Shown here piece by piece: positions 1,068-47,022 of a DNA stretch of 64,000 bases; the stretch's first letter is position 1, and each line of letters starts with the position of its first letter. Both the position numbers and the translations under genes were made by a program. A model generated the notes under the pieces. The model did not search any database. It saw only the letters and a list, made by a program, of their open reading frames with translations, and had not been told where the DNA came from. Source of the stretch: Raillietiella orientalis (lineage: Eukaryota); assembly GCA_036172245.1 (NCBI GenBank), contig JAYWIR010000001.1, positions 6,200,001 to 6,264,000 of the forward strand. Direction: 5' to 3'.

Positions 1068-4000
1068 CAGTTTAGAAAACTCTTCAGGTCTTCGGGGAAA
1101 GAAGAAGGTATTGCCGCTGAAATGCAATAGTCTGTGGACTCGAACAAAGACAGCATGACTAAACCAAATCGATAGATATCGTGCTTTTTGGCACTCTTGC
1201 CCAGGGCTGAATTATGGACAATATTCTTGTCTTCTCTTGCCGTATGATACACTTCGGAAAGGCGTTTCCCGATGCAGTAGTCAGCCACTTTTACGATACC
1301 TGAAAATGACATCCACACCGTAATGACCCAGCAAATGCTCTCGCACCGTCAGGGCGATCGTCTCGCTCAGCAACAAGTGACAAACAGCGCACCGCTACAA
1401 AGGGTCTCCACTTTTTGGAAATCTCTGATCTGAGTTGGGTGCCAAGTAAATTTTGGCGTTTCGGAATCGACCCTCTGATGCATGGAGAGACCGAACCAAA
1501 GACGCAACAAACAAGGGCGGGTATGGAAATGAAAGGGACTCGGTACACACGAGCACGTCTGGCGCATCCGCCTGTTTGGTGGCAGCTGTGCTATTCTCGC
1601 ACGGAAACCGTTCCCGGTAACAACAACCCAACTTTTTTCAAAACCACATGGATTGGAAGCCACCGCCGATCGCACTAGCCTTCCCGTTTCCCTAGTGCTC
1701 CACTTAGCCCATCAGAAAGTACAGATATTTCTGGGCAAGAAGAATGCAGCAGGCCGTGCAGTACGAACCGATGTTTCAGCTTTTCGCTCAAGATCAGATT
1801 CATCACCCATACCCACCACCATGCAGTCTCATCACGTGCAACTGACAAAGACTTCGGTGTGAGCATTTCAAACGAGTTTGGAACGCATGAATTTTTAAAT
1901 GCAAACGAAATTCAAATCTCGTTCCCCCGCACTGCAGAAAGACCAGTCATCACAGGTCGTTTGCAAACAGCATTCAACAGCCTAGTAGGAATGAGGGAGT
2001 ATCGGTTTTGGAAATTTGCGTTTCCGTAATCAGCGCAGAAGTCAAGCAGCAAACGAAGAGGACACAGCAACATTCCATGGTATCGCACGGAATCGCGGAG
2101 AAGACTGCTGTTACAGAACGAAAGCGAGTCACCAATAGACTTCAAAGGTTAATCCGATAATAAGCACATTTGGTCGAAAAGGCCGTTGGTCACTGCCGTA
2201 CGTTTCAGCATGGAAAATTTCATTTTCCTGTCGAGAGTCGGAGCATTTTTTTTTTTTCTCGTCTCGGGACACTGCTCGAGCCAGATCGACGGGGAAGGGT
2301 GCTCCGATTAGGAAACGAGAGTCCATTTCTGTGAACCAGAGCAGTACATCACAACACTGCTGCTGCGATTTGAACATCGCTGTCCGCGTCTGTGGTCTTA
2401 ATGACAGTGCGAAACACACTGAGGTTAGCAGACAAGGCAAAGTGAACGAAAAGAACACTTTCCACCTTCCGACAACCGTATGGGGCGACTCAAGAAGCAA
2501 ACATTCGCGTGCCCAAAGGAAAAAATCTCTGCAGATACTTTCCGCTTTCGCTATCTCTCAGAAAGAAGAGGCTCTGAACTCCTGCAGTGCAGAGATTCAA
2601 ATGAACGGTTCATACGATTCTGGTTCCGCAAGAATGGACTCAACAGCAGATGGAAAGGTGCTCACAACATGAGGCTTAGTGTCGAAAACACCACCGAAAG
2701 AGTTTTCTAATCAGTAGGATAGTTCTTGTTCTCACAGAGCGTTAGAGATTACTGAGCAACGTGCTCTAGTTACCCGGAAGCTGAATTTCCTTCTATTCCG
2801 AGCATTTCATTCGGACATTTGGAAAACAAAACTCACACGAGCATGCCTAAGCATGTACGACCGATTCAAATTCTAATGGCTATGCCACACTAAGGAGCAC
2901 TGTGCGAGCACTTGTTATGGAAACTGTTGGCAACGGTCATCTAAAATGGCGATCCGACTTCACGTTTCATTTTCAGGGTGCTTATAGGCAACTGGAAAAA
3001 ATTGGAAGAGCTTATGGAGCATTTGGAAGCTGGATAAGAAGGAATATCAAGATACTGACAAAATCACCTCACCAGCAACTAGAAATTACTTGCATCTACC
3101 ATTAGCATCGCTAATTATCCGACGGCTTTGCGGCCAGTTCTAGATATTTCCGGGGGAAAACAACTGACATTATTTGACACTTGGAAACCGTCTCATGAAA
3201 ATATTGTAGTCTGCATGTTGCTGCTTGTGCCTCAAAAAGACTCTAGACATAGTTTTGTACGTTATTGCAAACACAAACGTTCACAACGCCTATGGCACTT
3301 GCAAGCCGTAGTGTAACACAGTAGTAAACAAGATATCATGAGAAACGCACAGGATTACGTTGAAGTTAAAAGGCGACCAAATGAGTGCTTACAGAAATAT
3401 GCCTTCTGCTTACTTGTAGGTACCAAACATAAAAATAAGTCTCAGTTGAGACGCAAACTAAACTTCGTTAGAATAAACTTAACAGAGAGGACACCAGGAA
3501 AGCAAATATACTCTGATCATTCAGAATGGATTGTGTGTTGGTAAGCAGTGCACCACGACTTTTATCTGAAGTCGATTATGTTTTGTCAGCGTGTTTATGC
3601 TCGACGTAAAATTGCTCGCACCGTAAACCAAATTCTTATATTTCATTTCTCATCTGTTTAAGAGCGTGCTCAAAACATCGCTCAGTTTCTCCATTTTTCT
3701 AACTGTGCAATTTTTCAACGTTGGCATGAGCCTCAATTCCGGTCAACACTCAAAATATTTTCAATCTTTCAAATACAAGCATTTGCTTGGCTACAAGTAT
3801 GCTTTCAGACACATTCTACATGTAGATGCCCTCGGAATTGCGGTTCCGGCAGGAATTTCATTTTAGTTTAGAAATATTTCGGAGCGAAAATAAACTAAAA
3901 ACACGTTCATTACTTTACCTTCTTTATTTATAAATACGTTTGAGCAATGAAGATTTCTATGAACGATATCATGGTTATGCAAATATGTCAAGCCTTTTAA

Positions 4001-7000
4001 GATCCCTCTTGCATAATACTGCAACTCATTTAAGGAGGCAGGTACTTTGAGGTCCACGTGCCAGGATAACGATATTCCAAAAACATGTTCCTAGTAGAAG
4101 AAAAAAAACTGATGACTGAACAAGGCACAAGTGCAAGATGAGATCCGGAAGAAAAACGAAAAATATGAGAGATGAAGTGCAAAAAGTGCTCACAAAGTAA
4201 TCACTAAAGGGGTATGATTAACACATCAATAACATGCATTTAATTTTCATACATTTCCCCATGTGTACTGAATACATGTTTCCGAAAATTCATCCAGGAC
4301 ATAGTTTTAAAATTCTGTTCATAAAGAAACTGAATAGAAAACACAATTTCCACACCATGGTGGTTAAGGAAACATCATAGCAAAACTATAAAAGCAATTC
4401 TAGATGCTGGTGCAGCAATTAAGTTTCCAAGTAGAGAGAGAAGCATGATCAAAATCAAAAGTCTCAGCAAATTCACACGAACGTTTAAAATTTAATGAAA
4501 ATGGGCTCCGTTCGAATTAAAAATCTGGCAAGATGGTATTTGCATAAACTACGAGGTGGAAAACACATCATTGTAATAGGAGCAAAATAGATGATTTCCT
4601 TTTCAATACCTCTATTTAAGTGAACTATACAGCACAATCAAATTCTGCAAATCTGCAATTACCTGAATCTATTTTGTAATACTCCCAAGCATTCCGAAAT
4701 CTTAATCTATTAAAATGCAATGTATTTTAGAAACAGATGCACAAACAATTCTTGTAGCTTTAGGTTATAAGCTTTCAGAATTAACTTGGAGCCCATCATC
4801 TGCACCTCTGTATTCCAGGAGCATTCACTGATGCTCATGCATTTCGGCTGTCTGATCCAGGTGATCCATTATGCCCATTATCTATACAGTTTTGTATGGA
4901 AACCCAAAATTGCTTTCTATTCCCTAAAACTTTCATTGCCTGCATGTCTATTTCACTACAGTTCTCTGCCACACTGTTTATTGCCTACGTAAGTAGGTTC
5001 CCAACATCAATATTTTACAAGGAGAATAACTGTCAGATGTTAGAATACTTTCATATTGCACTGTTTGATTTTGCATTCAGGCAGAAATAATGAACTTGAA
5101 GAAAGCAACGTCTAGAAACATAACTACCATACCTTAACAATTACATTCTGTTTCTGTGTATTTTAAAATATAAATACAAAGCACAGTTGCCATGAAGAAT
5201 GAAGAATTTATGATTTCTTAATAAATACGTTTTCGCATTGAAAAATAATTCCGCCAAAACTATCAAGTTCATGCTAACATGAGAGAAGAAAAGATTTTTT
5301 TGCAAACTTTTGATTGATCTCTTGGGGTATTTTTCCTAGAGATCCTCTCACCAAGTCACTAGCTTGCACCAGTATTCAACAAGCACCTCAAATATCACCA
5401 GAAAAACAAACAGCAGAATAACTTTGTATATTTTAAAATGTATGATCCCAACACACGCATATTTTTATGCACAAATAGCAACGCTTCTCCTCCAAAAATA
5501 TTAACGCAAAAACTCTAAAACAAACAAACAAACAAAAACAGCACTAAAGTGTTTTCTAGCTCTATAAAAAAAACCTTGACTCTTTGCTTATGATGAATAT
5601 TTTGGAGAATACAATTACGAGTGCAGATAAACAAAATAACAAATTAAGCCTAGGATGCTTGCATTATAAAGTGTTAATTAAAAATTAAATAAACATTCCA
5701 AAGGCGAAATGCTAGTGAACATAATTCTGTTTGGCACAAATATAAGCCACATTGTTTTCTCCAAATTTGCCAATTCCAAAAATCGAGACAACGCTTATTC
5801 ACATATCTCTAGAAAAATTCGTCTACTTCTAGTGCCTATAGGTTAGACTGAAAAAACTTCTTGTTTTAATGCCTACACTACGTGGCATAAACTGAACTTA
5901 ATATTCAAATCAGATATCCAACACTTTAATTGAAAAAAAGCAAAACAAAACAAAAACTGAGCAACTTATTTTAATGAAAATGAATCAAGATTCAAAATTG
6001 AAGGCTGATATTCGATGGTACTATTGATTCATCTACCAAAGTGGCCATACACTGGGGTCAAGAATATCTGCTGGAAGCTACCATCAGATTATAGTGAAAC
6101 TATTTCACATACCTATGTTGCATTGATGGAAATCTGTTAAAAACAGTATCTGTTAAAAACAACTGCCTTTGCAATTGGATTGCAATTCTGTTTGACAGAT
6201 GCGGACTGCACATCAATCTCTATTGGTATTCACAACAATACTACCAGAAACAAGAAACAAGAAAAAAACTGATGAAATGGCATTATAGATGTTTCTGATG
6301 AGCATTTATTAGAGATTATTCTGATGAAAAGCCTGACACCACAAAATTGTGAATCACTGGAATGCTAACTGTGGTAATCCATGTCCTGAAATTGAGAAGC
6401 ACAATACCTAACGACAATCTGTCAAAGGGTCTTACTATATCAGGAAAAAGGTTGCAAGTAGACTTAGCTGTCTTTAGGTAATTACTGTACACAATCATAG
6501 TAGAATCGTGCTCTTTTGAACAAAAGGGAGATACTTTTCAATAACGTACTCCAGAAATCCAACAAGGTAAAATCAAAGAATGGTAACCTAGTGGTCATGT
6601 CTAAGTAGTTGACAGCGAACAGTCAATAAGTATTTTAAGGACAATCTTCAGAAGCATTATTCAGAATTATCCAGATCCAAACCCAATAACAGATGGAAAA
6701 TTAAACAGCTTTTATGTGGCTAGCTTTGCCAGTAGATTCAGAACTCTTTTACAAGAGACATCCACAAAATTCTTAATTAAAGAGTACTCAGAAAGTAATT
6801 AGTAAAGAAAGTAAAGATGGGTGAAAAGAGCACTGAGGACACAGATACTTGTAGAAATGATTACACACCAGAATGAAATTTTCTTATTCTTTTACACTCT
6901 AATGTATCTATGTAAGCAGCATATTAAAAAGTGATAAAGATTTTTATGCATAAATTTATTTTTTCTTATCTAAAGATCGAACTTGTTGGTTTACATTTGG

Positions 7001-21479: not shown

Positions 21480-22505
21480 CTGTTTAATCAAGATGATGAA
21501 TCATGTATTTTTGCCAGTGGTTCAGATAGCAAACAAGAAATCTTAAAGATGTTTCCCACGCTCCCCAAGATTTCTTGTTTGGACATATCATTAGACAAGC
21601 TGGGATCCCAGGCATCACAGAAACTTGTCTAATGCCTTCTTTTGAAACGGAGCATATAAGCTGGGCTTTCGGTCCAGATGCTCGCCTACGTTTCAAATCT
21701 GCACCAGCTGGCACTCCCCGACATGCTGTGGGATTGCAAGCATTCAAACGTATGGTCGACTCCTCATATGTTCGTCACTGTCCTCGGGTGACTGAAATGA
21801 CGGCTTTAAAACCTGCATACGTCACCATCATGGCAGATCCTGCTCGTTACCATATAGGATCACGTTATCCCACAGGTCAACCTAGAGCAGAATTTCTTGA
21901 TACGGATGCAGACCAGTATATGAGTCGTCTTGGATCTTATTTACGCCACTTATACCCAAAGTCGACTTCGAACAATTCGCCCCATTTTTCAACAACTGCC
22001 ATAGAATCCAAATAGGATTATGATCCCACTTGAGATACATTCTGCAAAAACATGACACGAGAGAAAATCAATCTTCCAGCCCCAGAAGAACTAGAGACTC
22101 TAACCGAAGCAGAATTAGCTCGCATGAGGGCAGACTTGGAAGACTCGAAGTTCCAGGTCCACAGCATGTTCCCCTTCCCCGAATTAGAGAGGCAAGAAAA
22201 CTAGTAGGCCTGGGGCAACCCATAGAAGTGCATCACGTTCTTCATGTGGAAGACAAGGCCCTAGTAGTTATACCAGAGCCAATGGAACTCATCACGAAGA
22301 AGTAGAAGATATTGGTGAAGAACAAATTGAAGCACAACTGGTTGAAGAGCCAGGGGTTAAGGAAGACCAACCAGGACAGGAAGAATCAGATGATCAACTA
22401 CCTACTCAACCTACACCAGGCCCGTCACATGAGGATACTGAAGGCACCAGTGGAGTTGTATTCAGGCGCAGTAAAAGACCAAGACAAAAGCGTCTTTCTT
22501 GATAA
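21480..22505 (+). pseudogene. Endogenous viral element: decayed nucleoprotein-like gene of a negative-sense RNA virus (Qinviridae/Muvirales-like)
   Basis: ORF 21575-22015 has RFKSAPAGTPR, IMADPARYHIGSRYPTG, YMSRLGSYLRHLYPKST..SPHF. The same frame continues through stops (ESK*DYDPT*DTFC), and an acidic tail in another frame ends TGA TAA at ~22500-22505. Intronless. Family assignment is from recalled motifs. Confidence 0.65.
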
Positions 22506-23637: not shown

Positions 23638-26013
23638 CGCCCAAGCAGCGTACCCGCAAGAGTCGGAACGCATCTGCATGCAGAAGAAGCGGCTGGAGGA
23701 ACTCTGGGAGAACCTGAAGGTAAAGAGCGACGCGCGGCAGAGAGGCTCAATTTGCATATGCTTTCCCTTTTCCGCAGAACCAGGCTCTGGAAAGAAAGCA
23801 CAGACTGGAAGAAGCCGTAGGCCAGCAAATCTTCCTGAACAGCTACGACATGTTGGTAAGCGTCCGCCGCGTACGGGAGGAGGAGGGAGGCCGTTTGTTT
23901 GTTTGACTTCGCCAGCTGTCCTGGGTCGCATCCAAGAAGGAAAGGATGAGGGGCGACCGGAACGGCAGAGACATCGAAGCGGTCGAGGATTCGCTCAAGC
24001 AACACGCCGACCTGGGAGAGGAGATCCAGGCGCGCCAGGACGAGTACTATGGCGTGTTGCGCTGGGAGCGAGCGCCGCTAACGGGGGAACCAGCTTCTCC
24101 GATCTGATCGCGCTAGGCAACAAGCTGCTGCGACAGGCGCCGCCCGACGCGCAAGAGATCAGCAGCCGCGTGTCGACTCTCGAAGACGAACGGCTCATCG
24201 TGTGGCAAACGTGGAGGGACAAGAAGGTGTGGCTGCAGCATTGGAAGCAGCTGCAGCTGTTCACCAAGGAGGCCGACAAGCTGGACGCCGCCTTGGCGGC
24301 CCACGAAACGTTTCTGGACGCGCAGGAGCTGGGCGTACGTAGCGGTGGCGCTTCCGGGGGCTGTGAGCGCTCGAGGGGACGGGATGGAAGCGGGGAAGAG
24401 GAGGAGCGGGCCTCACGCTCACTGGCCGCCGCCTTCGCTCAGGAGACGTACGACGACACGGAAAGTTTGTCGAAACGACAGGAAGACTTCGAAAACAGGA
24501 TGTACATCCTGGAGGACAAGACGAGGCTGTACAACGATCTGGCGGACAGACTGCTAGCGGATAGGCACTACGCCAGCCAGCAGTGGGTATCGCCGCGTGC
24601 GGACGCCTCACGTCCGCTGTCTTTCCCTGCGTGCGTTGCAGCATCGACTGCAGGAGGAACGCCACTCTGTCGCGACTGCAGACGATCAAAGAGAAGAACG
24701 CTTTCAGGAAGTCGCAGCTTCTCCTCATGAAAGAATTTCACGAGTTCGTGACCAACATCGACGAGCTGCAGGAATGGATCTCCATCAAGAGGAAGCTCAT
24801 CGCGGACCGGTCGCACAAAGGCGTGAACAACGTGAAGAGGGAACTGCAGAAGCACCAAGCGTGCGAAAGCGAACTGCGCGCCAACGAGAACCGGATCCGC
24901 GACGTGAACAAGGTCGGTAGTGGTCGGCCGGGCGCCGGAAGCACCCCGGTCCGATGCAGGCCAGCCAAAGCTTGAAGAAGAGGTGCTCTTCCAAGGAGGA
25001 AACGATCGCTTCGCTCGCTTCCAGTCTTCAGCAGCAGTGGGACGAGCTGTGCGAGTTGGCCAGGAGTCGGAGTAAAAAACTGAGGCAGGCTGCGTCGCAA
25101 AGCGAATACAACAAGTAACGTTCTGTCGGCCGTGTTTACGCGCCACGAAAGTGTTCGCGCGCCGCTTTCAGATTAGCCGACGAAATCGCACTCAAGCTGA
25201 AGAGTATCGAGGGGTCGCTGTCATCGAGCGACTTGGGTGAAGATTCGAGGCACTGCAGGCGGTTGATCAACGACCTGCAGGTTTTTGGCTTTCTTTTTTT
25301 TGTGTGCGTGTGTGTGTTTTCTTCTTCTTGTTGTTTTTTTCGCTTTTCGCTTTTGCTTTCGTATCGGGCAAGCATTGTCCTTCCACGCAATCAGAAACTG
25401 AAGAAGGAAGCAGATCTGTGCGAACTGCACATCCTCAACTTGGTGAACATCGGAGAAGCCATGATACACGACGACCACTTCGATTCGGCCAACATCGCCT
25501 CCGCGAACAAGGAACTGCTAAGGAGGTGCTGTTTTTTCTTGTGCCCCCGCGAAAGCAAAAGCGCGACTTGCCGAGCAGATACCATGCGCTGAAAGGCCCT
25601 TTCAACGAGCGCCTCCGATGCCTGGAGGAATCGCTAAAGTTCCACGAGTTCCTTCGCGAGATCGACGCGACGAAGCAGTGGATCAAAGAGCACGAGATGG
25701 CCATATCGAACACGGTGCTGGGCCACACGTTGCACGAGGCGGAATCGATTACCAAAAAGCACGGGAAGATGAGGTCGGAGGTGCAGTGTCACCGCTCCAC
25801 CATCGGCAAGCTGACGAACAAAGGAGACGACCTGGTGCAGCGTGGGCATCCCGAATCGAGCAAAGTAGGCGTAGGTGGATTCTGGCAGTCCGCCCACGCG
25901 CAGGTTTCCTTCCGTTGCAGATAAACGCCGCTTGCCATCAGCTACGAGCCAACTGGGAAGAGCTGTTGGCGAAGTTGAACAATCTCGGCAAGCAGTTGGA
26001 AAGACCACAGTAG
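23638..26013 (+). pseudogene. sma-1: Internal fragment of beta-heavy spectrin (sma-1/karst/SPTBN5-like), about 11 exons, truncated at both ends
   Basis: Short GT-AG introns join spectrin repeats in frame: AAYPQESERI...LEEAVGQQIFLNS..LLSWV...LKQHADLGEEIQAR..F..LI.LG.KL...KKVWLQ...LQLFTKEADKLDA..AAHETFL; exons start 23638, 23778, 23916, 24094, 24443 ... 25921. The last exon runs into a stop at 26011-26013 mid-repeat; no upstream exon seen. Confidence 0.85.
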
Positions 26014-28519
26014 AGGAGAAGTTATCGAAAGTGCAAGTTTAGACTTGCATTCCTAGAAGGAACCCTTTGACACTCGAAACTGATATGGATCCCTAGAATT
26101 TGCACGTTATCACTATTCGAAAGAATATTTTTTGTATTCATTGCAGATAGCGTCAGAACTGAAGTATTTTATGCTTCAAATGCTCGACTGATTGCTTGTT
26201 CAGCTGATCCTCATTTTACGCACTGGACATTTCGGAAAAAGTGGGGATTTAGCGAGTTTTAAACTAGCAATAATTTCATTTCGTTTTCTACCCTCGATTA
26301 GGATACTTCCCATGCACAAAATGAAAAAAAAGTTATATTTATTCAGGGAAATTACATTCCTTTTTTTTTTTTTTAGATCTGACTAAAGGGATTAGAAAGA
26401 CAGTTGTAGTGCCTATCCACTATTTACCTGAGTAAATTTTTCAAACTATCTGTGTTTTACGATATTCTGAGGATGGTTTGCTACGGATTCGAAGACTGAG
26501 CTATGGAAGAAAAAAAGAAGTGTGACTGAGGAAAAGGTTTTGCAATAAATCAAGAAATATGAATAGCTCTGCAGAACTCCCCATCAAGGTCCTCAGTATG
26601 AAAAACATTGAAGGAATGAAGTTGAGGTTTCAGGGACTCCCGTGTGAGCCAACATTCCTCAGAACAGTATGCTAATGCGATGTGGTTACTTTGGTGAATT
26701 CCGTTTGGCTCGGGGAATTCTGACTTGAAGATGACAATAGTGTTTTGTTCTGGCTTTAAGTGACATAGGACACTACGATGAGTGAAGACCGTGCAATAAA
26801 ATTATAAGCATGAAGTGCCATACAATTCGTCTATCCTTGGGATACTTCGGTATCATTGCATCATTCTACTAAACATGAGGACCATGACGGATATCTGTGT
26901 TGTGACATACCATGAAGACAATGATTTAGCTTCCTTTCCTTCTCTGTTGCCTTGATGTCATATCATATGAATTTTTTACTCCCTAGTCTAAACAAGGTAA
27001 CCATGGCGAGCGGTTTTTTCTCTTCTTATGTATAGAGAACGAAGTCCCAGCTGCCGCACAGATTCGAACAAATCATGTGAAACATAAAAGTGACATCTTA
27101 GATTTGAATGGAAGGATACTTTGAAGGAAAACACCATCGGAGAGCAGTAACATGGATTAGAACTCGTCAGGAAGTGCTGCTGTGTAATCGGAGCACGAAT
27201 ACTCTAGTTAATCTCTGTGCCTAAGCCATAAATAATGGGATTCAAGTGTACAATATTTAACAAGGATCGGCAGGCCATATTCAATCAATTTCAGTGCTTA
27301 AACAATCTGTGATGAGAAACTTCTAATTTATATCAACCAATAAGACATTTTGATTATAGATACAATGACCAGGACACACCGTCTAGATATTGGTATGTAC
27401 TCATACGAGAGATAGTAAATATCGAATAAATTATGTATCTGTTATCTGGACTCCAGAAACGAATACACAGGTTAGCTTGAAAAACTAGATTTGCAAAATG
27501 ACTCGTGTATCCGTAAAAGTCACTGATTTCTCTTAATAGCATACAGTTTTTTGATCCGGTGGAAAGTTGACGATCAATCAACTATGCCTAAAAAATTTTG
27601 TTCCTCTTTGCCACGGCATGCAGTGTCAGCTCGAAATGGCAATCTTCGCCATTACTTGTTCCCAGGTGGGATGCGTATTGGGATTTGATTTTGAAAAGGT
27701 TTGCCGAAATGCAGCACCGTGTGTTCGAACTTTTGAAAGAATGTTTACAGATGAAACGGTGTCCTTCGAAGCCGTGTGGAAAGCTTCAGTAAAGAAAAGA
27801 GAGAACCAATAAGAGAACTGATCAAAGACCAAAACACCTTACAATTTATTCGGCAAACATCAAAAGACCTTCTCTGCATCCTATAGCATTTGGATCATAA
27901 CTATTAGCCAATAAGGGTTAAAGTAAGTCGTTTCATATTCAGTTGGTACAAAAAAAAAAAAATCACAGATACCAACAAATGGCACTCAACATTTTCTCAT
28001 AATGTGTTGTAATAAAAAAACATGTGCTACACAACATTCTCAATAATTGCAGAAAATAAACCAACTTCAAGTGTTACACATTGGCGCCCGAAAGTTTCTG
28101 TCTAAGCATTTTGCATTTCGAAAATAATGGACACTTTGGAAAGCAAAAAACTTGAGGTTTAGCAACACTTCCACAAAGTAAACATTCTCTCAGAAACATC
28201 GAGTTTACTGCCTTGTTGTTAAATAAAAAAGGATTCTTTCCGATTTGAGACAGAAATTAGAAACATTCCTTGGAAACAACAAATTCGGGCACAACTAAGA
28301 ATTGCAGGTTTTGGGTTTCAATCTTGTAATTTGCTCTCTCATACACAATTTATAGAGCAGTACAACAAACGGATCGCTTTTTACAAGCTTTTGAGTCAAA
28401 AAAGCAGATTCTTTATGGACGCATTTCTAAACCTCTGCTCAAAATAATTGATTGGTAGGCTTACAGATTCTCTCGTTACTGTATTAATGAATTCATGAGG
28501 AGTCATCAGCCTTCGTGTT

Positions 28520-30215
28520 CCTTAATTTAACAAAGATGTGAGGAGACACAAAGGTGGATGCACTGTGCCGACGGTAGCCTCTCGGCGCGCCAACGGTCTG
28601 CCCCCGGATGGACACCAACGGAGGGTCGCAACGCACGCGCGACTCGCCCCGATGCGCCCTACGCGCGACGGAGCCGCCACCAACGACCGCAACGCCGATT
28701 CTTGCATTCGGCTGCTTCCCCGAAACGGCAAGGCAAGTCGACACTCGTCTTTGCGTTCCGCCCCGCACCGGGAGACTCCTTGTCCAGCCGCGACCGCCGA
28801 CGAACCCACGCCTACGGAACAGTTCCGACGCGCGGCGGACACCCTCCCCCTCCCCCCGATGCCCGCGAGCAAAGCGCGTCCCGCGGGCGCTCGCAGCGAA
28901 AGTGGCGAGAAACCCGGTGCTGGCGGACGCCCGCTCTGCCCGGAGGGGCCGCTGCTGCAGCCGCTACCGACAAGCGGTGCTCTTTCTCCTGCGCTCCCGA
29001 GGGACGCGGTCGGACGCGGGGTCACTCCCATCTCCGGAACCACCTCCGCCGCCGTCCCGCTCTTCGGAGGCGCCCCGTGACGCCCTCCAACCGCACGTGC
29101 GTGTGCCGCACGCAAGGAAAGAGACGCAACTCTTCCGGAAGTCGACCTGCAAACGACCGGGGTCGCACCACTCCTGGGCAGCGGGAGCGGCGTCAACCCG
29201 AACAACGAAAGAACCGGCGAAGAAACGGAGCAGCCAAAGAGGCGAATGGGCGAGCGGAAGGGCGCCTCCGAAAGCGGAGGGACTGCCGCCGCCCGGCAAC
29301 GCGTGACGAGGAGCAGCGCCAGGGGGGTCCGCAGACCTTTCCGCGACCCGCGACCGCCGCCCCGGCTTGCCGGAGAGCGACAGCACCGACGGCGACGCGT
29401 GCCGACGCGGGTGCGCGGATTCCTTCGCCGGGAATGCGCGCGGGGACGGCTCGCGGTCCAACGCTTTTTCCAAAATTCGAAAGTGCTTGCTTACTTATCT
29501 TTATCCCAAGTTCGCAGGCGCACGAACCCACTCTCGGATTCCTTCAGAACAACCAGGTGCGACACTCCCGCCTCGCGGCACTTGTTCTGGACGTCTTCCA
29601 GACTCTGAAACCGGCTCGAACGACGCGGCCAGCTCCACGTTCCTACCTGAACCGGGCTGTACAGCAGCTGCGAACGTATCCCGGAACTCCACAGGCTGCC
29701 GGCCAACTGCGCCTTTTCCCTGAGCAGCAGTCCCCGGCCGACGGAACAGACGACCGCTTCCAGCGGACAGATCTCGGGAATGGCCGGAACGGCGTCCTTA
29801 CGCCGCAGCACGTGCAGGATCTTGTCCGCGAAGACGCTGATGCCCACGGCCGACGGTACCGGGTCCGCCGGACCCATGAATTTCTGCCTGAAACCACACG
29901 GCTGGGAGGGACAACGCCACCGACAGCGCCCTACCGCCGCCAGCCGTCCGTCCCAGCAGCGGGACGGGCAAAGCAGCAGCAGGGTGCGTGAGCACGGATC
30001 GTCCGGGAGCGCCGGGCGGGATGGGATGCTGCGCGGCCGGGAGCTCGCGGGGACGGAGGGGGCGCCCGCCTACCTGAACTGGGCGATCAAGCAATCGTAA
30101 CGCCCTCCCGAGGCGAGGATGTTCAGGTGGTCCACTTTGTTCCTCTTCCCTTTCATCACGTACTCGAAGGTGATGCCTCGATACTTCTGAGGGTCCAGCA
30201 CGAGGATAGGCAAGA
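28520..30215 (-). pseudogene. EIF2AK4: GC-rich fragment encoding the GCN2 C-terminal HisRS-like/anticodon-binding region
   Basis: Exons ~30215-30074 (KYRGITFEYV...ILASGGRYDCLIAQFR), 29887-29647 (PSAVGISVFADKI...LAGSLWSSGIRSQLLY), 29604-29495 (SLEDVQNKCREAGVSHLVVLKE...VRLRTWDKD) and one starting 29146 (VDFRKSCVSFLA). These match GCN2 'ILAAGGRYD.LI.QFR / AIGVSIA.DKI / LW.AGI.A' motifs. Exons below ~29100 and the lower boundary are unresolved. Confidence 0.82.
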
Positions 30216-30759
30216 TGGTTGAGGATCGTTTGTGGCAAGTGGAAAGAAAAGCCGGATGGGAAATCGAAAAGTGTACAACACAGAGAAAACCCTTGCAAGG
30301 TCAGCAAAAAAAAAGAACCACTCCATGGTTGGAATGTCGTTGGAATTGGGAACCATTTCGAAAGTAGCTGGGTAGTCTCGGAATCGCTCAGTGTCGGTTT
30401 ATGGTTTCACCTTATCTTTTCACATCGTTTTCGACGATACGTTTGCTTGGTCACATAACACAGTAACAGTGTCCTTATTATGATTTTCATTTCATTTCTG
30501 GAACACAGTTCTTAGTTTCTACTTACGCTTGTTTGCTTTTCTGCCAAAGTTCGAGCGTATGATGGAGAATGCCCTTTACATGTTGAAAAATTTCCTTTAA
30601 ACTTCATTTTGGAAAGTTTTGTTTATTTCTAGTTTGTTCATTTCCTATTAGTAAGCAGCTTCCCGTTCATGAAAGCATCTTGTTCTTATTCCTCGGTTGC
30701 TTTTTGAGAGGAAGGAAAACACAAATGTAATCGAAATTGCATTTTTCGAGGATGTTTCA

Positions 30760-32320: not shown

Positions 32321-33518
32321 ATGGGGCGGTAACCCATTTGACTCATTTAAAGAAACTGGCGTAAAAATTCGAAACATTGTACTGATTGGAATGATAGATT
32401 TTGTCATCAGGATTTTGTTGGTATGCTTTCAATATAAAATAACCAAATCAAAAAATTCGTAACCTCACTTCAAAAAACTAGGTTTGTATCAACCCTAGAT
32501 CAAACCAGTTTCCACTCATTGTGATCCTTGACTTTCAACTCGTAAAAATCAGAACTTTGGAACATTTTTAAAACAGTAATTTTATTACTGTTTCGAAAAT
32601 AAACCCAGAATAACCACGTTTCGTGTGGAAATAAAAAAAATTGTGAGCATTATTTCCAGATTTAATAAACATCGACCGAGAAATGAAAAATTGAATTTAT
32701 CTTCGAGAAGAAAGCACTCCTTTGACATTCTCTTAACATGTAACCTTTTACTATGATTGATTTCTTGATTCTACACTACATCATTGCTGCCTTGCTTCTT
32801 GAAATTTCACAAATTAATTCATAAACAGATGAAGAACTTGTGTACTTATGGACCATTTCAAAAGTTTGAATCCTATGAAAGCCTTAATATGTAATCTCAG
32901 CCATGATTGATTGATTGTTCTCAGAGTATTCGAAACTTCGAGTTGCAATCGGCTGCAGGAAAACTCACAATCTGCAACTAAATAGAAGAACACATTGCAG
33001 CCATAGAAATCAAATGCCATACGCCTTGGGCATTTCCAATCTCCTTAAATAGTACTGTCAATTAATGGTTACAACTGAATGTCTCGCTTTACTCGTCCTT
33101 TAGGAATTCCAGAAATTTCCGTTCAAACAAGAAACATTCGTATTTGCATTGTGCCTCATCCCTCATGCTACTGAGTGGGTTTTGGAGGGCACTCCAGTCT
33201 GCTTTCTCAGTTACCCATTTCCCATTTCGGTATAATCATCTTGTGACTTGGATTTCTAAGCACGCGGAAATCGGAATGCTTGAGTAATGCACTCGACCGG
33301 AATTTCGCTAGGAAGACACTCCGATGATTCGTCAAATTAAGCTCATATCTTTCTTTCTTTCACCGAAGGGCGCTCGGCTCTTCGGAAACGGCTGCTGGAA
33401 GGTCGCCGTCGATCGATGGCACAACCGCGGTACGGTCGCCGAAGAGCGCGTTGGCGGCGGTCGGTGCATTACCCTCACCGTTAATTTATGCAGATGATCG
33501 GTAGTGATAAACATTAAG

Positions 33519-36500
33519 ATGGACGGAGACAAACTTTGGGAGGATCGTGAAATTCGATTTGACATCTCTCCAAAGTAAGTTGGATTCGTATGTTTTCTGC
33601 ACAATTAGGCCGTCTCAGCAAACCGAATCTCTGGCATCGAGTTCCACTGAGGAACGCAGCGTAAAGTACATTTATCAGCTTAATAGAGTAGTTTAAGCAC
33701 ATCACTCTGAATGTTTTGACTTGACAAAGCTCCTTGTTCTATTCATCTTTCATTTCTGAAAGGAGCAAGTGGTCAGATCTAGCAGTAACTTCCTTTATTA
33801 AATAAGCATGTTTATTCGTTCATTGCATATCATTTCATCAAAGAGAATTGAAATTGACAACTGGGGAAAAGCTCGTCTCGTTACTTCCTTTGATTGAAGA
33901 CTGCAAAGGAAACAGTGGTGATAAAGGCAAGCTTGTCGTTACAAACCTGAGAATAATTTGGCAATCTTCAAAATTCTTAAAGATCAATTTATGTGAGTAG
34001 ATTCCTTGACTTCACAGAAGTTAATGCATCAATAGCAATAGGTTACAAGTGCGTCACTCACTTGACAAAGAAGGTCCTTAAAAATGTAAGTCCCGTAGGC
34101 GTACTGAAATTGCAAGTGAACGATCTCACGATAAATAGACAAGAAGGACTTCCAACGCCTTAGTTGTGTTGTCAAAGCAAAACAACATACAGTATGAGTT
34201 CATCTTTCGTAAGATGACAGCTGGAAACTCTGACTGTTTCGAAGAAGTCAGCAAGTGTTACGGGTATGTACTTCCCCTGTTACTCATTCATAAGATCGTT
34301 GTTAGAGCATATATGCATTCAACAAAATATAGAGAGCTCAGACTCAGGACAAGCTGCATCGACAACCAGCAGCTCAACGTTTTGCCCAATGAGCAAATTG
34401 TTAATAACATCGATGGAGTTTGGAATCTTGCAAGCGACCAAGTATGCATATGGATCTTGGTGGTAGTTGTTCTGCCTAGATTAAAAGTTATTCATTGCAG
34501 GGTACTCTTGGATGCTTTATCCTTACTAATGTACGTTTAGTGTGGTACAGTGTTATGAACGAGTTGTTCAACATTTCTCTTCCTTTTCTTCAAATTGCAT
34601 CGGTAAGTTAAAATGGCTTTTACTACGTAGAATTTCATCACCCATGACATGAATCGAGAAAGCATTCTAGGGGAAAAGGAAATCTTGACAAGCGTCGATG
34701 TCGTAATGGGATCACTACTTTATTCGAATATCCATTGCAATGAAACGAAAGATTTCGTAGTTGCAAGCTTTTAGCTATTTTTACTGATGAGAGTCGATGA
34801 GGATTATAAGCAGGCTCCATATTTTAAAGAATGAATGCAGATGATCAAGTGAAGGAGGAAATCTCAACTGTGACACGTAAATTCAGTACATAATAGGGAA
34901 CAATATGATTCGGAGGACCTCAACGTTAGGAAGCACATCTCGAAGATGAGTGAAATTTAATTTGTTTTTTTTTTTTTTTCGAGAAACAATAATACATAAG
35001 GAGTGACCGCGACATTCGCTTGTGCTGATGCAATGAAGTTGCATGAGCACAAGTTGCATGAGATTTTCAAAAGATCGAAGTTTACTGGAAGTACTTTGCT
35101 TTTGAGTTTGAGAAATGGGTCGGCAAACACACCGAAACGGAGACGGTATTTTGACGCAGAGAATGTCTCTGAAGCATTTTCCTAAACTTGCACGTTGCAA
35201 TCGAGATTTTCAGCTTCACTTGATTAGCGCGTTTTTACTTTATTCATTCCTTTTCACCAGACCTACAATTTCTGATCCCGTATGCCTTCTTGCGTTATCT
35301 CTTTTGGTTTCTTTGTGCCAAATTTCATGAGCCAAACGTCGAAATTCCTGCCGCTTCAATGACGAAAGAGTTTCAGAAACTTCACTTTATGGATGTATTA
35401 GAGTTATTGATAATATGAATTATTTTTTTCAAGACTCTGCCAACTTTTGTAACCTTCTTGAGACAGTTGTGGAGCTCGTTGCTTTCTCGAACAACCAGAA
35501 CAAGAAGGGGCTTGGTTTCCCGCACACGGTCGAACCTTCATATACGTGAATCGAACTACGTTTTCTTACCGTCGAAAAAAAGGATTTTTTTTTTTTTTCT
35601 TAACTTTTCCAAAACTTAATTTCCGTGAGTTCACGGAACTCATTGTCCCTTCATGCTTTTTCGATGCTTTTGAAGTTCAGGATGTGAACTCAAGAACGAA
35701 CTCAAGTTTTAATGCAAGAGCATTAAAACTTCGAATCGCAATGTATAGACGTTGAATATTACTATACACTCCTACAAAACTCCGGATTCGGACTGTACAT
35801 AACACGCAGCATTTTGGTAATTGCATTCTGCTGGTGACGTCATCTCGTGGTCAGCGCCGACCGAAAGCGGTAGGCGCTGTGCCAAAGAACGGCTGAGTGG
35901 TACGTAAGGTGGGCCGTTGTGGTGTACAATCGACAAATACATGGAAACCTTGGACCTCGCTTAGTGCTTTCAAAGCCATCAACATATGGAAAACGCAAAT
36001 TTTCCACTTTGGCATCAGAAACATTTTTAGGTCCCTTGCAAATTAAAAATCGCCCTCGGTTTGCCTCGATTTTTCGGATAACCCTTCAACCGTCTCGTAC
36101 AGTTTCATTTTATGTACACGAAGGAGGCGATATTGCATGCAAGTGTGAAGTTGAGACTGATGCGTTATGACAAGATTTTTTCGACCCAACGTGAATGAAA
36201 CCGTTTCTAGGTTTTTTGTTTGGCTCATTTAAACAACTTTTTTTCTTTGAGACACCCTTTCTTTTTTAAAAAAGTAAAAATAAAATAAAGACCGCTAAAG
36301 TAAGAATCACATCCAATTTTTTTTCAAGAACCTTATTTCTGTTATTTTGTCTTCTTGCAAGAGTAAATATATTCTGCAACTTGTTTGCTCAAGTGTTTCA
36401 GCTCCTCATTTATTGAAGATTCTTATTTTGTTTTCAGATTCTGATTTTTGTTTGTTTGATTTTGATGCTTTATGAATTCAAACATAAGTCTGAGATGAAA

Positions 36501-38480
36501 ATGGAAAAATTTTCTGTTTTTCTCTTGAGTGTTCTGAGTTGTTCTGAAATTAAATTTGAAGGTTTCCAACAGGGCATCGTACACTTTGAAAAACTATGCA
36601 TTCCTTCATGGTGGACATGATGGTTCTTTTTGCCAAAATCAAACCTAGCTTTTGGGCTGAGTTAATTTCAAACGCATAGCAACTGACTTATCTTGCAAGC
36701 GTTCTCCCCATTAAACAAGACCCAAAATCTCCCCATAAAGAATAATATTTATATGGAAATTATTTTTATTAAAAATGCTAGTCCTTTTGTCTGAAGGTTC
36801 TTTGCACAGTGTTCATCCATTTCCTTGAACGAAATGCATCTTGATGTGCAGACAAATCATCTAAATATCACTGACTAAAATGAAAATGTCATGCAAAGTT
36901 ATCACATCTCATAATGTTAATATGATTTTTATTGCCGTGTAATTTCCTTTTTTAATGTGTTTCTAGATTATGGGTTGGTGCTCTTGTGCATTGTGTTCCA
37001 GTAGTACTCTTATTTTTGTATAGTTTCATTCCACACTAGATCGCAGATTTCGTGCCCATGTTTTTTTAGGAAGAATTTCATATATGGCCCTATCAAAAAG
37101 CATAGAAAGCATTATTAGAGAAATGCAAAATAACCCAGGGAGATATTTCAGAATTCCAGTATTATATGTGCACAGGTTGCAAATGAAAAAAAAACGGAAA
37201 GCATGAACTTCATCACAAAAGCGTAGTTGGTTTTGATTTTCATAGCATTCACAGATTTTTCTGATTTCAACCTTATTTGTTAACTTGAAAAGCCTGCCTT
37301 CCAGACAGACACATTCACAATCAAAAATTTTATATTAGTTGCCAGAACTTGTCCTTTCGATTCTAAACTCAAGATGAGGCTTTGCAATGTAGGAGTTTTT
37401 TCGTTTATGCTGCCTAACAGTCATATCTTTTTGCAAATTTTTTGTGAACTTATTATTGAATGGATTGTATTTCATAAGGGTACTGACGTATAAATAACTT
37501 AATTTCCGGTAATCAGTCTAGAGCATGATGGTATTTGTTCACTTAGTGTCTGTTGATACCCTCAGTATCTCTTGATTTCTATGGCTAATTCTTAATTGAC
37601 AGTTAAAATCTGAATTTGTTTGTGTGTTTAAAAACTTGCTTGAATGTGTTTATGATTGAAAAAAAAAAGACTTGGGGAATTTAATCTGGAGGGAACTAAT
37701 ATTTTACATAATCAATGCAGAACGGAAGAACTGGATGTATCACTTTCAGATAGGGTCTAGTAAAACTGCAACTACGATTTCTGAGCCATTTGTTACATAT
37801 TTGTGAATGCTGATCCATTTCTGTTGCCATGAAAAAACAAAAACAAAAGTAACACTTTACACTCCTAAGCATATGCATGAAACATTGAACTATGAAAGAG
37901 CACATGCATATTGTTTTGTGTGTCGAAGTTAAAGTATTTACATAATCTTGTGCATATTCACATGCCTGAATCTGGATATAGAGCTCCTTCACTCTTCTAA
38001 AATTTATGGTTCACTGAATTTAGATTGAAATAAAGAACTCGAAGTTTGGAAATATACTGGTAATTGAAACAACTCAAATAAGTGGAGGATACATAGTAGG
38101 ATTCAAAGTTGATGTTTTACACAAGTTTAAGGAAATCCACAGAGAACTTTGTTTGCTTAAGAATACCTATGCTCTGCATCCTATCTATGGGACAGAGATA
38201 AACATACAAACTCATCAGGTATGTCACATTTAAACTTCCAAAATCCTCTTCTTAGCTTTCTTAGAACCAAATAAAAAATGAAACAATTTTCAATTCTCTT
38301 GATACTCATTCTAATGATTCTGAATCTACGATGCTGGAGAATACACACAAAAAGTTCTCTTACTGTGATGATGGAATTATCGATAAACCTCTAACATTTT
38401 CTTCTGTATTTGGACTGGCTTTTGAAGGAACCATAGATGAATGCATTCTTCAAAAATTATGGAAAATAAAGGCATCCTAA
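33519..38480 (+). CDS. BBS5: Bardet-Biedl syndrome 5 protein (BBSome subunit)
   Basis: Eight in-frame exons: 33519-33574 (MDGDKLWEDREIRFDISP), 33844-33992 (IEDCKGNSGDKGKLVVTNLRIIW), 34036-34085, 34139-34263 (YEFIF), 34306-34441 (GVWNLASDQ), 34501-34602 (GTLGCFILTNVRLVW), 38024-38218 (SKFG..LVIETTQISGGYIVGFKVD), 38265-38480 (FGLAFE...LQKLWKIKAS*). Confidence 0.93.
35794..35928. other. Short GC-rich hairpin-forming element in BBS5 intron 6, bounded by TGTACA at both ends
   Basis: TGTACA at 35794 and 35923; internal stems CAGCA/TGCTG, CAGCGCC..ACC-GAAA-GCGGT..GGCGCTG and AACGGC/GCCGTT. Confidence 0.45.
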
Positions 38481-39352
38481 AGGATTTAATGGGGAGGGGG
38501 ATGGTAACCCAGGAAACAATTACTGTACTTAGTTTCCACTACATGATTCTTTCTTTAATGGATACTGAAGTTGGAGAAGTTTTAAGTGCTTCCAGAGTAA
38601 TCGATAAGTTTTACAGTAAATTTTTGAATGAAAAAAAAAGACATCCCAAAGATAACTCTATTTTTTTGGATGTGCTGCATGATGGGGAAATAATGGAAGT
38701 GGCAGGCATTGCTGCTGGCCATTTAATTATCAGGACCAAATCATCATTTCAACCAAAACTATCGAAAACATCATCCGTGCAAAAACAAGAAATTTGTAGA
38801 ATCTGTCTGCAGGAAGCTGAGGAAGCAAACCCATTACTACACCCTTGCAAATGCAAAGGATCCATTGGCTTTGTGCATGAAAACTGTATTAAGATTTGGG
38901 TGCTGGACTTCAACCACCAATACTGTGAGATGTGCTGTCATCGATACAGTCTAGATTATGCTGTGTGTTCCCACATTCGTGTACGACCGTATTGTCCAAG
39001 CCTAATCCAGCCACCTCACAAAACACATCCATCACCATCTATTCCCTGTTGGTTGTACAACTGTGTGAGAGTTCACGCAACCCTGTGTTTAAAATCCATT
39101 TCTCTAAAACTGAAAAGTGTCGATCAATGGATTGATCCCCTCTGGATTACCATCTTTGTGCTGTCCCAAATATGGCAGAACAAACATCACCTCACTATGG
39201 TATATTTAGCAATTTTGCTATTATTATGTCGTGCCCTAATGAATTCCATGATATTAGTTTTTCAATTTTTCAAAACCTTGACTATGATGTGCAATTGTTT
39301 TCTTCAATTTATGGGAAAAAGTTTACGATACATATCAGATGAAGTACAATGA
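38441..39352 (+). CDS. Intronless RING-CH (RINGv) MARCH-like membrane E3 ubiquitin ligase; true start uncertain
   Basis: 303-aa ORF with C4HC3 finger CRIC...LLHPCKCKGSIGFVHENCIKIW...CEMC, followed by two hydrophobic segments (WITIFVLSQIW; MVYLAILLLLCRALMNSMILVFQFF). Confidence 0.85.
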   Translation: MHSSKIMENKGILKDLMGRGMVTQETITVLSFHYMILSLMDTEVGEVLSASRVIDKFYSKFLNEKKRHPKDNSIFLDVLHDGEIMEVAGIAAGHLIIRTKSSFQPKLSKTSSVQKQEICRICLQEAEEANPLLHPCKCKGSIGFVHENCIKIWVLDFNHQYCEMCCHRYSLDYAVCSHIRVRPYCPSLIQPPHKTHPSPSIPCWLYNCVRVHATLCLKSISLKLKSVDQWIDPLWITIFVLSQIWQNKHHLTMVYLAILLLLCRALMNSMILVFQFFKTLTMMCNCFLQFMGKSLRYISDEVQ

Positions 39353-46058: not shown

Positions 46059-47022
46059 ATGAAAATGAATCAGTGGCCAATAAAGCCATATTCCAACTCT
46101 GGAGAAGACTTCCTCCAAAATAAAAATAGCCATCTTAAAGTGAGGTGTATTCAAAATGATTATGAAAAGCCAAGTTTAAGTAGCAGAACTCTGTAAGTTT
46201 ATTAAGGGTGTTCATATTGCAAACATAAATTGTAGGACCCCTACTTGTACTGGAACTTCAGTACTGGGAGTTTGTTTTGATAGAGGAGTCTGTATTGCTG
46301 CGGATACTTTATGTTCATATGGCTCATTAGCTAGGTTTCCAGCATGCTCACGAATAATGAAAGTTAATGAATTAACTGTTCTTGGGATGAGTGGAGATTA
46401 TGCAGATTATCAATATGTGAAAGCTGTCATTGAACAGAAAGTGTAAATATTCTTGGAATCTAACATGGAAACAAGAGTAATGTGAATAATGGTTTTAGCA
46501 TAGATGATTATTGCATGGATGATGGCTTTTATATGAAACCATTGTCTTTACTTTGTTGGCTTACTCGTGTCCTCTACAAGAGAAGATCCAAATTTAATCC
46601 CTTATGGAATCAGTTTGTGGTTGGTGGTTTGCAAGACGGACAACCGTAAATGATTTTGAAATAATGTCTCTTTCTTATTTGTGTGTCAGATGCTTAGGAT
46701 TTGTAGACAAACTTGGAACAGCATATCAAGATACACATATTGCTACTGGATATGGAGCATATCTTGCCTTGCCTATGATGCGGTCTGCATGTGAAGCACA
46801 AGTATTAGATGAATTCCAAGCAAAACAGTTACTACATGACTGTTTAAAAGTGTTGTATTATCGAGATGCTCGTGCTTATCCTAAGGTTTGTTGAAATTAT
46901 ATCAATTACGTATTAAAAAATTGTGTTGTCTCTTGAAGTATGAAGTGGCCACAGTAACAAGTGAAGGAGTCAAAATTGAAGGAATGTTCAAAGTTGAAGC
47001 CAACATGAATGTTACACTCTGA
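46059..47022 (+). CDS. PSMB4: Proteasome subunit beta type-4 (beta-7)
   Basis: Five exons: propeptide then [102 protein letters not shown] at 47020-47022. Confidence 0.95.

Follow-up and report, generated by a model that had tools for sequence, protein, structure and literature searches.

A 64,000-nucleotide stretch of the Raillietiella orientalis genome (GenBank assembly GCA_036172245.1, contig JAYWIR010000001.1, positions 6,200,001 to 6,264,000 of the forward strand) was analysed; it is referred to below as the window and numbered from its first letter. Within it, a GC-rich block of about 1.7 kb (28545-30216, possibly reaching to about 30300) encodes on its minus strand three exons of GCN2, located 13.3-14.3 kb upstream of the RWD exon of the GCN2 gene itself and on the same strand. 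We suggest that part of the GCN2 gene of this lineage was duplicated at the DNA level, without processing, and that the copy was inserted upstream of the gene and is most likely silent; we assign this explanation a probability of roughly 0.55. It is favoured because the block retains its introns, has no poly(A), is truncated, adjoins its cognate gene and takes the same position as that gene in the GCN2 tree. A DNA-level partial duplication was one of several alternatives named in the original prediction, which had been made from the sequence of the window, and it was the one that fitted the results best.

The exons were delimited with a profile built from nine full-length GCN2 proteins and run on all 3204 six-frame open reading frames (ORFs) of the window with a length of at least 12 amino acids (aa). 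Exon A, in which the homology to GCN2 begins, matched profile positions 1327-1375 (E 4e-7; match 30216-30073, envelope to 30246), and its match to the Pfam family tRNA-synt_His (E 0.01) was under the family cut-off. It ends in an AG/GT donor at 30074/30073. Exons B and C together matched profile positions 1386-1493 (E 7e-26; match 29865-29494), and exon B was matched in tblastn by all nine of the full-length references. The 42-nt segment between exons B and C can be read through, but we consider it an intron because the reference alignments have a gap exactly over its 14 codons, both in at least six full-length reference alignments and in the nine-reference profile alignment. A GTAAGC donor (29494-29489) follows directly after exon C, and reading through it leads straight into a TAA. 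All three exon frames are open, giving about 165 codons with neither a stop nor a frameshift, and both introns are of the GT..AG type. The original prediction of HisRS-like GCN2 exons with intact introns and frames, on the strand of the RWD exon and upstream of it, was thus borne out.

The extent of the coding sequence was smaller than had been predicted. C-terminal GCN2 exons had been proposed over the whole of 28520-30215, but HisRS-like coding sequence was confined to 29495-30216, about 165 of the approximately 1668 profile positions, and the remainder (28545-29494) had no detectable GCN2 homology and no C-terminal domain. This GC-rich tail yielded no match to the GCN2 profile and no Pfam family on two minus-strand and four plus-strand ORFs. 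The motifs of the C-terminal domain of the references were also absent from all three minus-strand frames of 28450-29500, as judged by the profile and by eye against the nine references. No poly(A) or A-run was seen at the 3′ edge of the block (28520-28560). The tail is presumably copied intron or 3′ sequence. Long ORFs were present in most frames of the block, among them a stop-free ORF of 486 aa (28531-29991, plus strand) that lies antisense to the GCN2 fragment, is Arg-rich and of low complexity, and has no Pfam family. These ORFs are most likely a by-product of the stop-poor composition.

The encoded region was identified as the end of the HisRS-like part of GCN2. Searched with HMMER against 1.84 billion cluster representatives, the 131-aa read-through of exons B and C matched 47 proteins at E <= 1e-3; five of these reached E <= 1e-10, but E <= 1e-30 was reached by none. 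Over long matches the identity was 32-45%, with a few short ones (49-75 residues) reaching 47-56%, and none of the representatives exceeded 45% over a long match. Ten of the matches were looked up, and all eight with a name were GCN2 or unnamed kinases from bilaterian invertebrates (amphioxus, stick insect, nemertean, damselfly, beetle, bivalve, Ciona and sea urchin). The best sequence match in the PDB was human GCN2 (8t7t, residues 1360-1471, E 6.5e-6), ahead of cytoplasmic HisRS (E about 1e-3). In an AlphaFold model of the read-through (mean predicted local distance difference test score, pLDDT, 75.8), the beta-alpha-beta pattern seen in class-II anticodon-binding domains was complete, and the 14 codons of intron 2 fell in a low-confidence loop (pLDDT about 46). 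The best fold matches of the model were again 8t7t and then HisRS anticodon-binding domains. The anticodon-binding-like domain of the fragment is closer to GCN2 than to authentic HisRS. A word-index protein search with the fragment returned 694 candidates, none with E <= 0.001.

According to an excerpt of PMC11363354, Gcn2 carries a catalytic-like domain followed by the anticodon-binding domain (ABD) and then by the C-terminal domain. Given that layout, the block would hold the whole ABD and, before it, the final 48 residues of the catalytic-like domain, among them the GGRYD motif. The fragment resembles full-length GCN2/EIF2AK4, as represented by human 8t7t and by the C. thermophilum Gcn2 covered in that excerpt, in sequence and in predicted fold. 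Unlike the full-length protein, it lacks the RWD, pseudokinase and kinase domains, the N-terminal part of the HisRS-like region and the C-terminal domain. None of the papers listed by a limited literature search described such a piece of GCN2. Partial gene duplicates with introns are already known as a kind, and this fragment adds another case.

At its upstream edge the fragment had been predicted to begin in mid-exon with no acceptor AG. No AG occurs between 30291 and 30216, but the AG at 30293/30292, which follows a run of nine T and GCTGAC, is a candidate for a usable acceptor 75 nt upstream of the start of homology. From 30291 the sequence continues in phase and stop-free for 75 nt (25 codons) into exon A. 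This 25-codon stretch lacks the LHELE motif, which is present in seven of the nine references (the beetle has LQELK and the bivalve a gap), and it gave only a weak 'ISH' match to them. The better reading of this edge would be that the fragment is truncated within what the references show as a single continuous coding stretch. There is no start codon upstream of the GCN2 homology in the fragment, and truncation was its sole disablement.

The main GCN2 gene starts at about 16.6 kb and leaves the window leftward after the pseudokinase exons, so that only its 5′ third was seen. Its seven exons span profile positions 17-511, and a weak possible first exon extends this coverage to 5-511. The gene was also supported by tblastn and by a match to the Pfam family Pkinase on 3863-4090. 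No ORF in the window matched profile positions 511-1327 or 1493-1668, the other rows being at chance level (E 0.6-8.6), and from the first of these gaps it follows that the window contains no kinase domain and no N-terminal HisRS-like part. The predicted absence of catalytic kinase exons before the fragment was therefore upheld. The fragment does not share a reading unit with the RWD and pseudokinase exons; these lie downstream of it and not upstream. The next exon of the main gene, expected to supply the rest of a Cys codon and then L..DER, was not found in 1-1070, and a word-index search with exon 1321-1070 gave 34 candidates and no relative. In the pseudokinase region the main gene has an AT-rich intron of 68 nt (7463-7396, minus strand; CAG/GTACGG ... 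CTAAC ... TGTAG/), which initially resembled a frameshift between two ORFs.

The fragment and the main gene were placed separately in maximum-likelihood trees (IQ-TREE) with the nine references, using 150 columns for the fragment and 373 columns for the main-gene exons. Both fell on the insect side of a split from deuterostomes plus spiralians, with an ultrafast bootstrap of 88 for the fragment and 99 for the main gene, and their branches were similarly long (0.88 and 1.01). The stick insect and the damselfly gave the highest percent identity among the nine references for both; the lowest came from Ciona for the main gene, and from the bivalve and then Ciona for the fragment. The two identity profiles were correlated (Pearson r 0.74, n=9), which is weak evidence since the references differ in evolutionary rate. 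These results point indirectly to a lineage shared by the fragment and the main gene. The organism seems to come from a fast-evolving lineage that is poorly sampled and falls on the arthropod side of the GCN2 tree.

Conservation was likewise comparable. Invariant columns were kept in 14 of 16 cases by the fragment and in 15 of 18 by the main gene, and columns conserved in at least seven of the nine references in 31 of 47 and 73 of 98 cases, respectively (Fisher p 0.33). When the references were left out singly, they kept about 67-94% of the fragment columns and about 81-94% of the main-gene columns (46% for one partial reference). By this measure the fragment seems no more decayed than the main gene is divergent.

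The composition of the block was in strong contrast to its surroundings, as had been predicted. The window is a mosaic with 40% GC overall. The block (28545-30216) has 66% GC (range 64-72%) and is flanked by sequence of 33-46% GC. GC content at third codon positions (GC3) was 0.68-0.81 in the fragment exons (0.81 in both A and B) as against 0.27-0.50 in the seven main-gene exons, and the introns and tail of the fragment had 0.69-0.75 GC. The observed/expected ratio of CpG (CpG o/e) was 1.18 in the block versus 0.41-0.44 in the AT-rich gene bodies at 5-19 kb and 36-47 kb (GC 0.31-0.32). The lower edge of the block, at about 28545, is sharp, with a step in GC from 0.38 to 0.70 over about 40 nt, whereas the upper edge is blurred, exon A itself having only 0.47-0.57 GC.

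The main gene changes in composition as well. At about 3 kb a shift occurs, GC3 being 0.50 in exon 1321-1070 versus 0.27-0.35 in the exons upstream, and intron DNA at 1-1700 has 0.52-0.55 GC and a CpG o/e of about 1.0 versus 0.31 GC and 0.41 upstream. This rise in GC towards the left window edge makes a GC-rich source plausible. The part of GCN2 that was not seen, its 3′ two-thirds, may lie in GC-rich DNA that is not CpG-depleted, and the fragment may have kept the composition of its source. Nor do the short introns mark the fragment as foreign, since the main gene has one of 68 nt. The regions 1-3 kb, 19-33 kb and 47-64 kb were also GC-richer, with a CpG o/e of 0.7-1.2, and the ORFs scanned there were almost devoid of recognisable coding content.

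A second GC-rich block, encoding about four alpha-spectrin-like repeats, lies 2.5 kb from the GCN2 fragment in convergent orientation (0.55-0.65 GC, CpG o/e 1.1-1.2). It matched the Pfam family Spectrin (E 3e-9 and 2e-12), and the best PDB matches of all three exons tested were alpha-spectrin chains. No further spectrin exons were found on either side by inspection of ORFs, and the family Spectrin was not detected in 74 ORFs of 16.7-33.8 kb. Because 2.4 kb is too small for a spectrin gene and no flanking exons were found, this block is considered an internal gene fragment. A word-index search with a spectrin exon gave 39 candidates and no relative, but the index covered only proteins of up to 2000 residues and spectrins are longer. 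Two blocks of gene pieces with 60-70% GC and no CpG depletion, set in a CpG-depleted neighbourhood of 30-35% GC, are a puzzle, and the contrast bears on whether this genome has compositionally contrasting compartments and on how DNA moves between them.

Under the favoured explanation, a piece of about 1.7 kb would have been copied, introns included, from the GC-rich 3′ part of GCN2. It would have taken in 48 codons from the end of the catalytic-like domain, the anticodon-binding-like domain in full and, after these, some 950 nt of non-coding sequence, and would have landed in the GCN2-BBS5 intergenic region, about 13 kb upstream of the gene and in the same orientation. The copy most likely does nothing, since it is without a start, a kinase domain and a C-terminal domain, and it would be a young or slowly decaying gene relic. 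The identity, exon structure, truncation, position and composition of the block were shown directly, whereas its origin in the neighbouring gene, the GC-richness of the source region and the silence of the copy are inferences. If the block were foreign DNA, its adjacency to the cognate gene would very unlikely be due to chance.

Several observations weigh against this explanation. The 3′ end of the presumed parent is beyond the window, so that neither a second copy nor the GC content of one was seen. The jump in composition is extreme (GC3 of 0.8 as against about 0.3, CpG o/e of 1.18 as against 0.41). The nearby alpha-spectrin fragment implies a mechanism that was not confined to the neighbouring gene; a mobile element may have captured the pieces, or they may form a mosaic of foreign or duplicated DNA. 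Finally, the exons carry no disabling mutation, which would also suit a functional piece.

The block resembles the unprocessed pseudogenes and partial duplicates that arise from small segmental or templated insertions in being a DNA-level copy with introns, truncated at both ends. As in unprocessed partial duplicates, it has no promoter or start codon and lies near the cognate gene in the same orientation. It differs from typical unprocessed pseudogenes in the absence of a disabling mutation and in its extreme compositional contrast to the visible part of the parent. A processed pseudogene or retrocopy was ruled out by the retained introns and by the lack of poly(A) and of flanking direct repeats. 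The remnant of a tandem duplication of the whole gene was rejected as well, both ends of the block being novel junctions, and intact BBS5, RING-variant (RINGv), aldolase-like and proteasome genes fill the space that the rest of an upstream copy would have occupied. If the block is a dead partial duplicate, it is mainly a matter for annotation: gene predictors could wrongly join its exons with those of GCN2 or report a small gene that does not exist, and the apparently 'scrambled' exon order should not be taken as trans-splicing.

An assembly artefact is unlikely, though it comes next. Both the GC-rich GCN2 block and the alpha-spectrin block would have been misplaced by a mis-join, a gap-closing patch or chimeric reads, and the exons would then truly belong in the normal 3′ part of GCN2. 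The sharpness of the lower edge and the occurrence of two compositionally alien blocks within 6.6 kb are consistent with this. However, there are no runs of N in the window, and both blocks have AT-rich, host-like flanks on either side, so that each would need two false joins, four for the pair. The block also begins within a stretch that is continuous coding sequence in the references and carries only three exons, unlike a misplaced contig end.

Helitron and Pack-type DNA transposons capture gene fragments. That the block was captured by an element of this kind, or is filler from break repair or DNA from a GC-rich, arthropod-like foreign source, with the adjacency to GCN2 a coincidence, is distinctly unlikely. 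In its favour, two unrelated, intron-bearing internal gene fragments, plus-strand alpha-spectrin and minus-strand GCN2, lie in GC-rich blocks without CpG depletion within one intergenic region, an arrangement like that of Helitron and Pack-type captures, in which fragments of unrelated genes lie close together in either orientation. The lack of a long match above 45% identity among the database representatives, and of any in the word index, also counts in its favour. Unlike such captures, however, the block showed no terminal repeats, no hairpin, no target-site duplication, no transposase and no further copies in the window. Neither inverted repeats nor long terminal repeat (LTR)-like direct repeats of at least 40 nt were detected in the window, the only direct repeat being unrelated, although Helitron ends are too short and degenerate for such a search to exclude them. 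No target-site duplication or other direct repeat flanks the block, and the window holds no second copy of either the GCN2 or the spectrin block. Moreover, the block is within 14 kb of its cognate gene and shares its tree position, on a similarly long branch.

The search for element-encoded proteins was equally negative. No reverse-transcriptase or transposase family of Pfam was detected in 74 ORFs of at least 55 aa from 16.7-33.8 kb outside the two GC-rich blocks, nor among 48 individually scanned ORFs, 14 of which were new ones inside the GCN2 block; the scan did not extend to ORFs of less than 55 aa or to the greater part of 34-47 kb. Of the 48, 34 had no Pfam family at all. The reverse-transcriptase relic that had been placed in this region was not recovered in 88 ORFs from 16.7-33.8 kb or 14 ORFs from 47.5-59.9 kb. 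A nuclear mitochondrial DNA segment had been placed there too, and none was recognised when 30.2-48 kb was read in the invertebrate mitochondrial code, a reading made by eye that does not amount to a test.

We see a small chance that the block reflects something less ordinary, either an expressed stand-alone GCN2-derived module acting in trans or an unrecognised process in this lineage by which pieces of housekeeping genes (GCN2, alpha-spectrin), GC-rich and with their introns, become scattered through AT-rich intergenic DNA. The chance that the block is a functional piece is slim. It would then be transcribed to yield a stand-alone anticodon-binding-like module, running for example from the Met of exon A to the TAA after exon C, or its exons would join GCN2 transcripts; such a module might modulate GCN2 as a competitor, either at the ABD-CD dimer interface or for tRNA. 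The approximately 165 codons free of stops and frameshifts, the canonical splice sites, the retention of conserved columns about as well as in the main gene and the complete beta-alpha-beta fold of the model all suit a function. In fungal Gcn2, according to the excerpt of PMC11363354, the HisRS domain needs the ABD in order to dimerise. Against a function, there is no start codon upstream of the homology, the fragment carries an orphan 48-residue end of the catalytic-like domain, and the alpha-spectrin fragment of the same style nearby suggests passive junk. The intactness of the exons is equally expected of a young copy.

The predicted alternative of a permuted single-copy gene, whose only copies of these exons would be joined by trans-splicing or DNA rearrangement, is very unlikely because the block cannot complete the gene: its exons are intact, on the strand of the gene and followed by a strong donor, but it supplies only profile positions 1327-1493, about 165 of the approximately 1150 positions missing from the window, the kinase domain, the N-terminal HisRS-like part and the C-terminal domain are also missing, so that use of the piece would require splicing both into and out of the middle of a transcript, and its only candidate acceptor precedes 75 nt with no GCN2 homology.

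Table 1. Features of the window, with GCN2 features in the order of the minus strand.
Feature	Position	Strand	Description
Open in-frame stretch	30217-30300	-	5′ of exon A; candidate acceptor; about 45% GC; no significant GCN2 homology
Exon A	30216-30074	-	143 nt; end of HisRS-like catalytic-like domain including GGRYD motif; GCN2 homology begins
Intron 1	30073-29888	-	186 nt, GT..AG, about 75% GC
Exon B	29887-29647	-	241 nt; first two-thirds of anticodon-binding-like domain
Intron 2	29646-29605	-	42 nt, GT..AG, in frame, stop-free
Exon C	29604-29495	-	110 nt; end of anticodon-binding-like domain
GC-rich tail	28545-29494	-	about 950 nt, 69% GC, no recognisable coding content; block end sharp at about 28545
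Main GCN2 gene, 5′ third	16629-1070	-	RWD and pseudokinase exons, AT-rich; continues past left window edge
Weak possible first exon	16629-16582	-	extends profile coverage to 5-511
RWD exon	15228-15055	-	profile match E 3.5e-13
Other main-gene exon matches	12013-11867, 10238-10086, 7634-7404, 7392-7216, 4090-3911, 1321-1070	-	
GC-rich alpha-spectrin block	24101-26013 (GC-rich from about 23600)	+	about four alpha-spectrin-like repeats, introns about 100 nt
BBS5	33806-34540	+	Pfam E 1e-21
RING-variant (RINGv/MARCH-type) gene	38441-39352	+	single 303-aa ORF, domain E 5e-15
Proteasome subunit exons	46180-46894	+	Pfam Proteasome E 4e-11 and 2e-4

The remaining features of the window lie mainly to the right of the GCN2 block (Table 1). 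No matches to Rfam and no tRNAs were found in the window, and the ORF at 21530-22015 had a best score of 0.84 in the protein Atlas, which gave no lead. The BBS5 gene that had been predicted nearby was confirmed. Just upstream of it, a weak match to the Pfam family RCS1 (regulator of chromosome segregation 1) was detected on the minus strand at 33335-33604 (E 1.3e-4); its 22.3 bits fall short of the cut-off of 25. Together with a weak match to Pox_A14 (E 3.4e-3), it was the sole match among the 74 ORFs. The ORF of the RING-variant gene has BBS5 on one side and, on the other, a minus-strand aldolase-like gene that is represented by weak DeoC matches at 39.5-40.2 kb.

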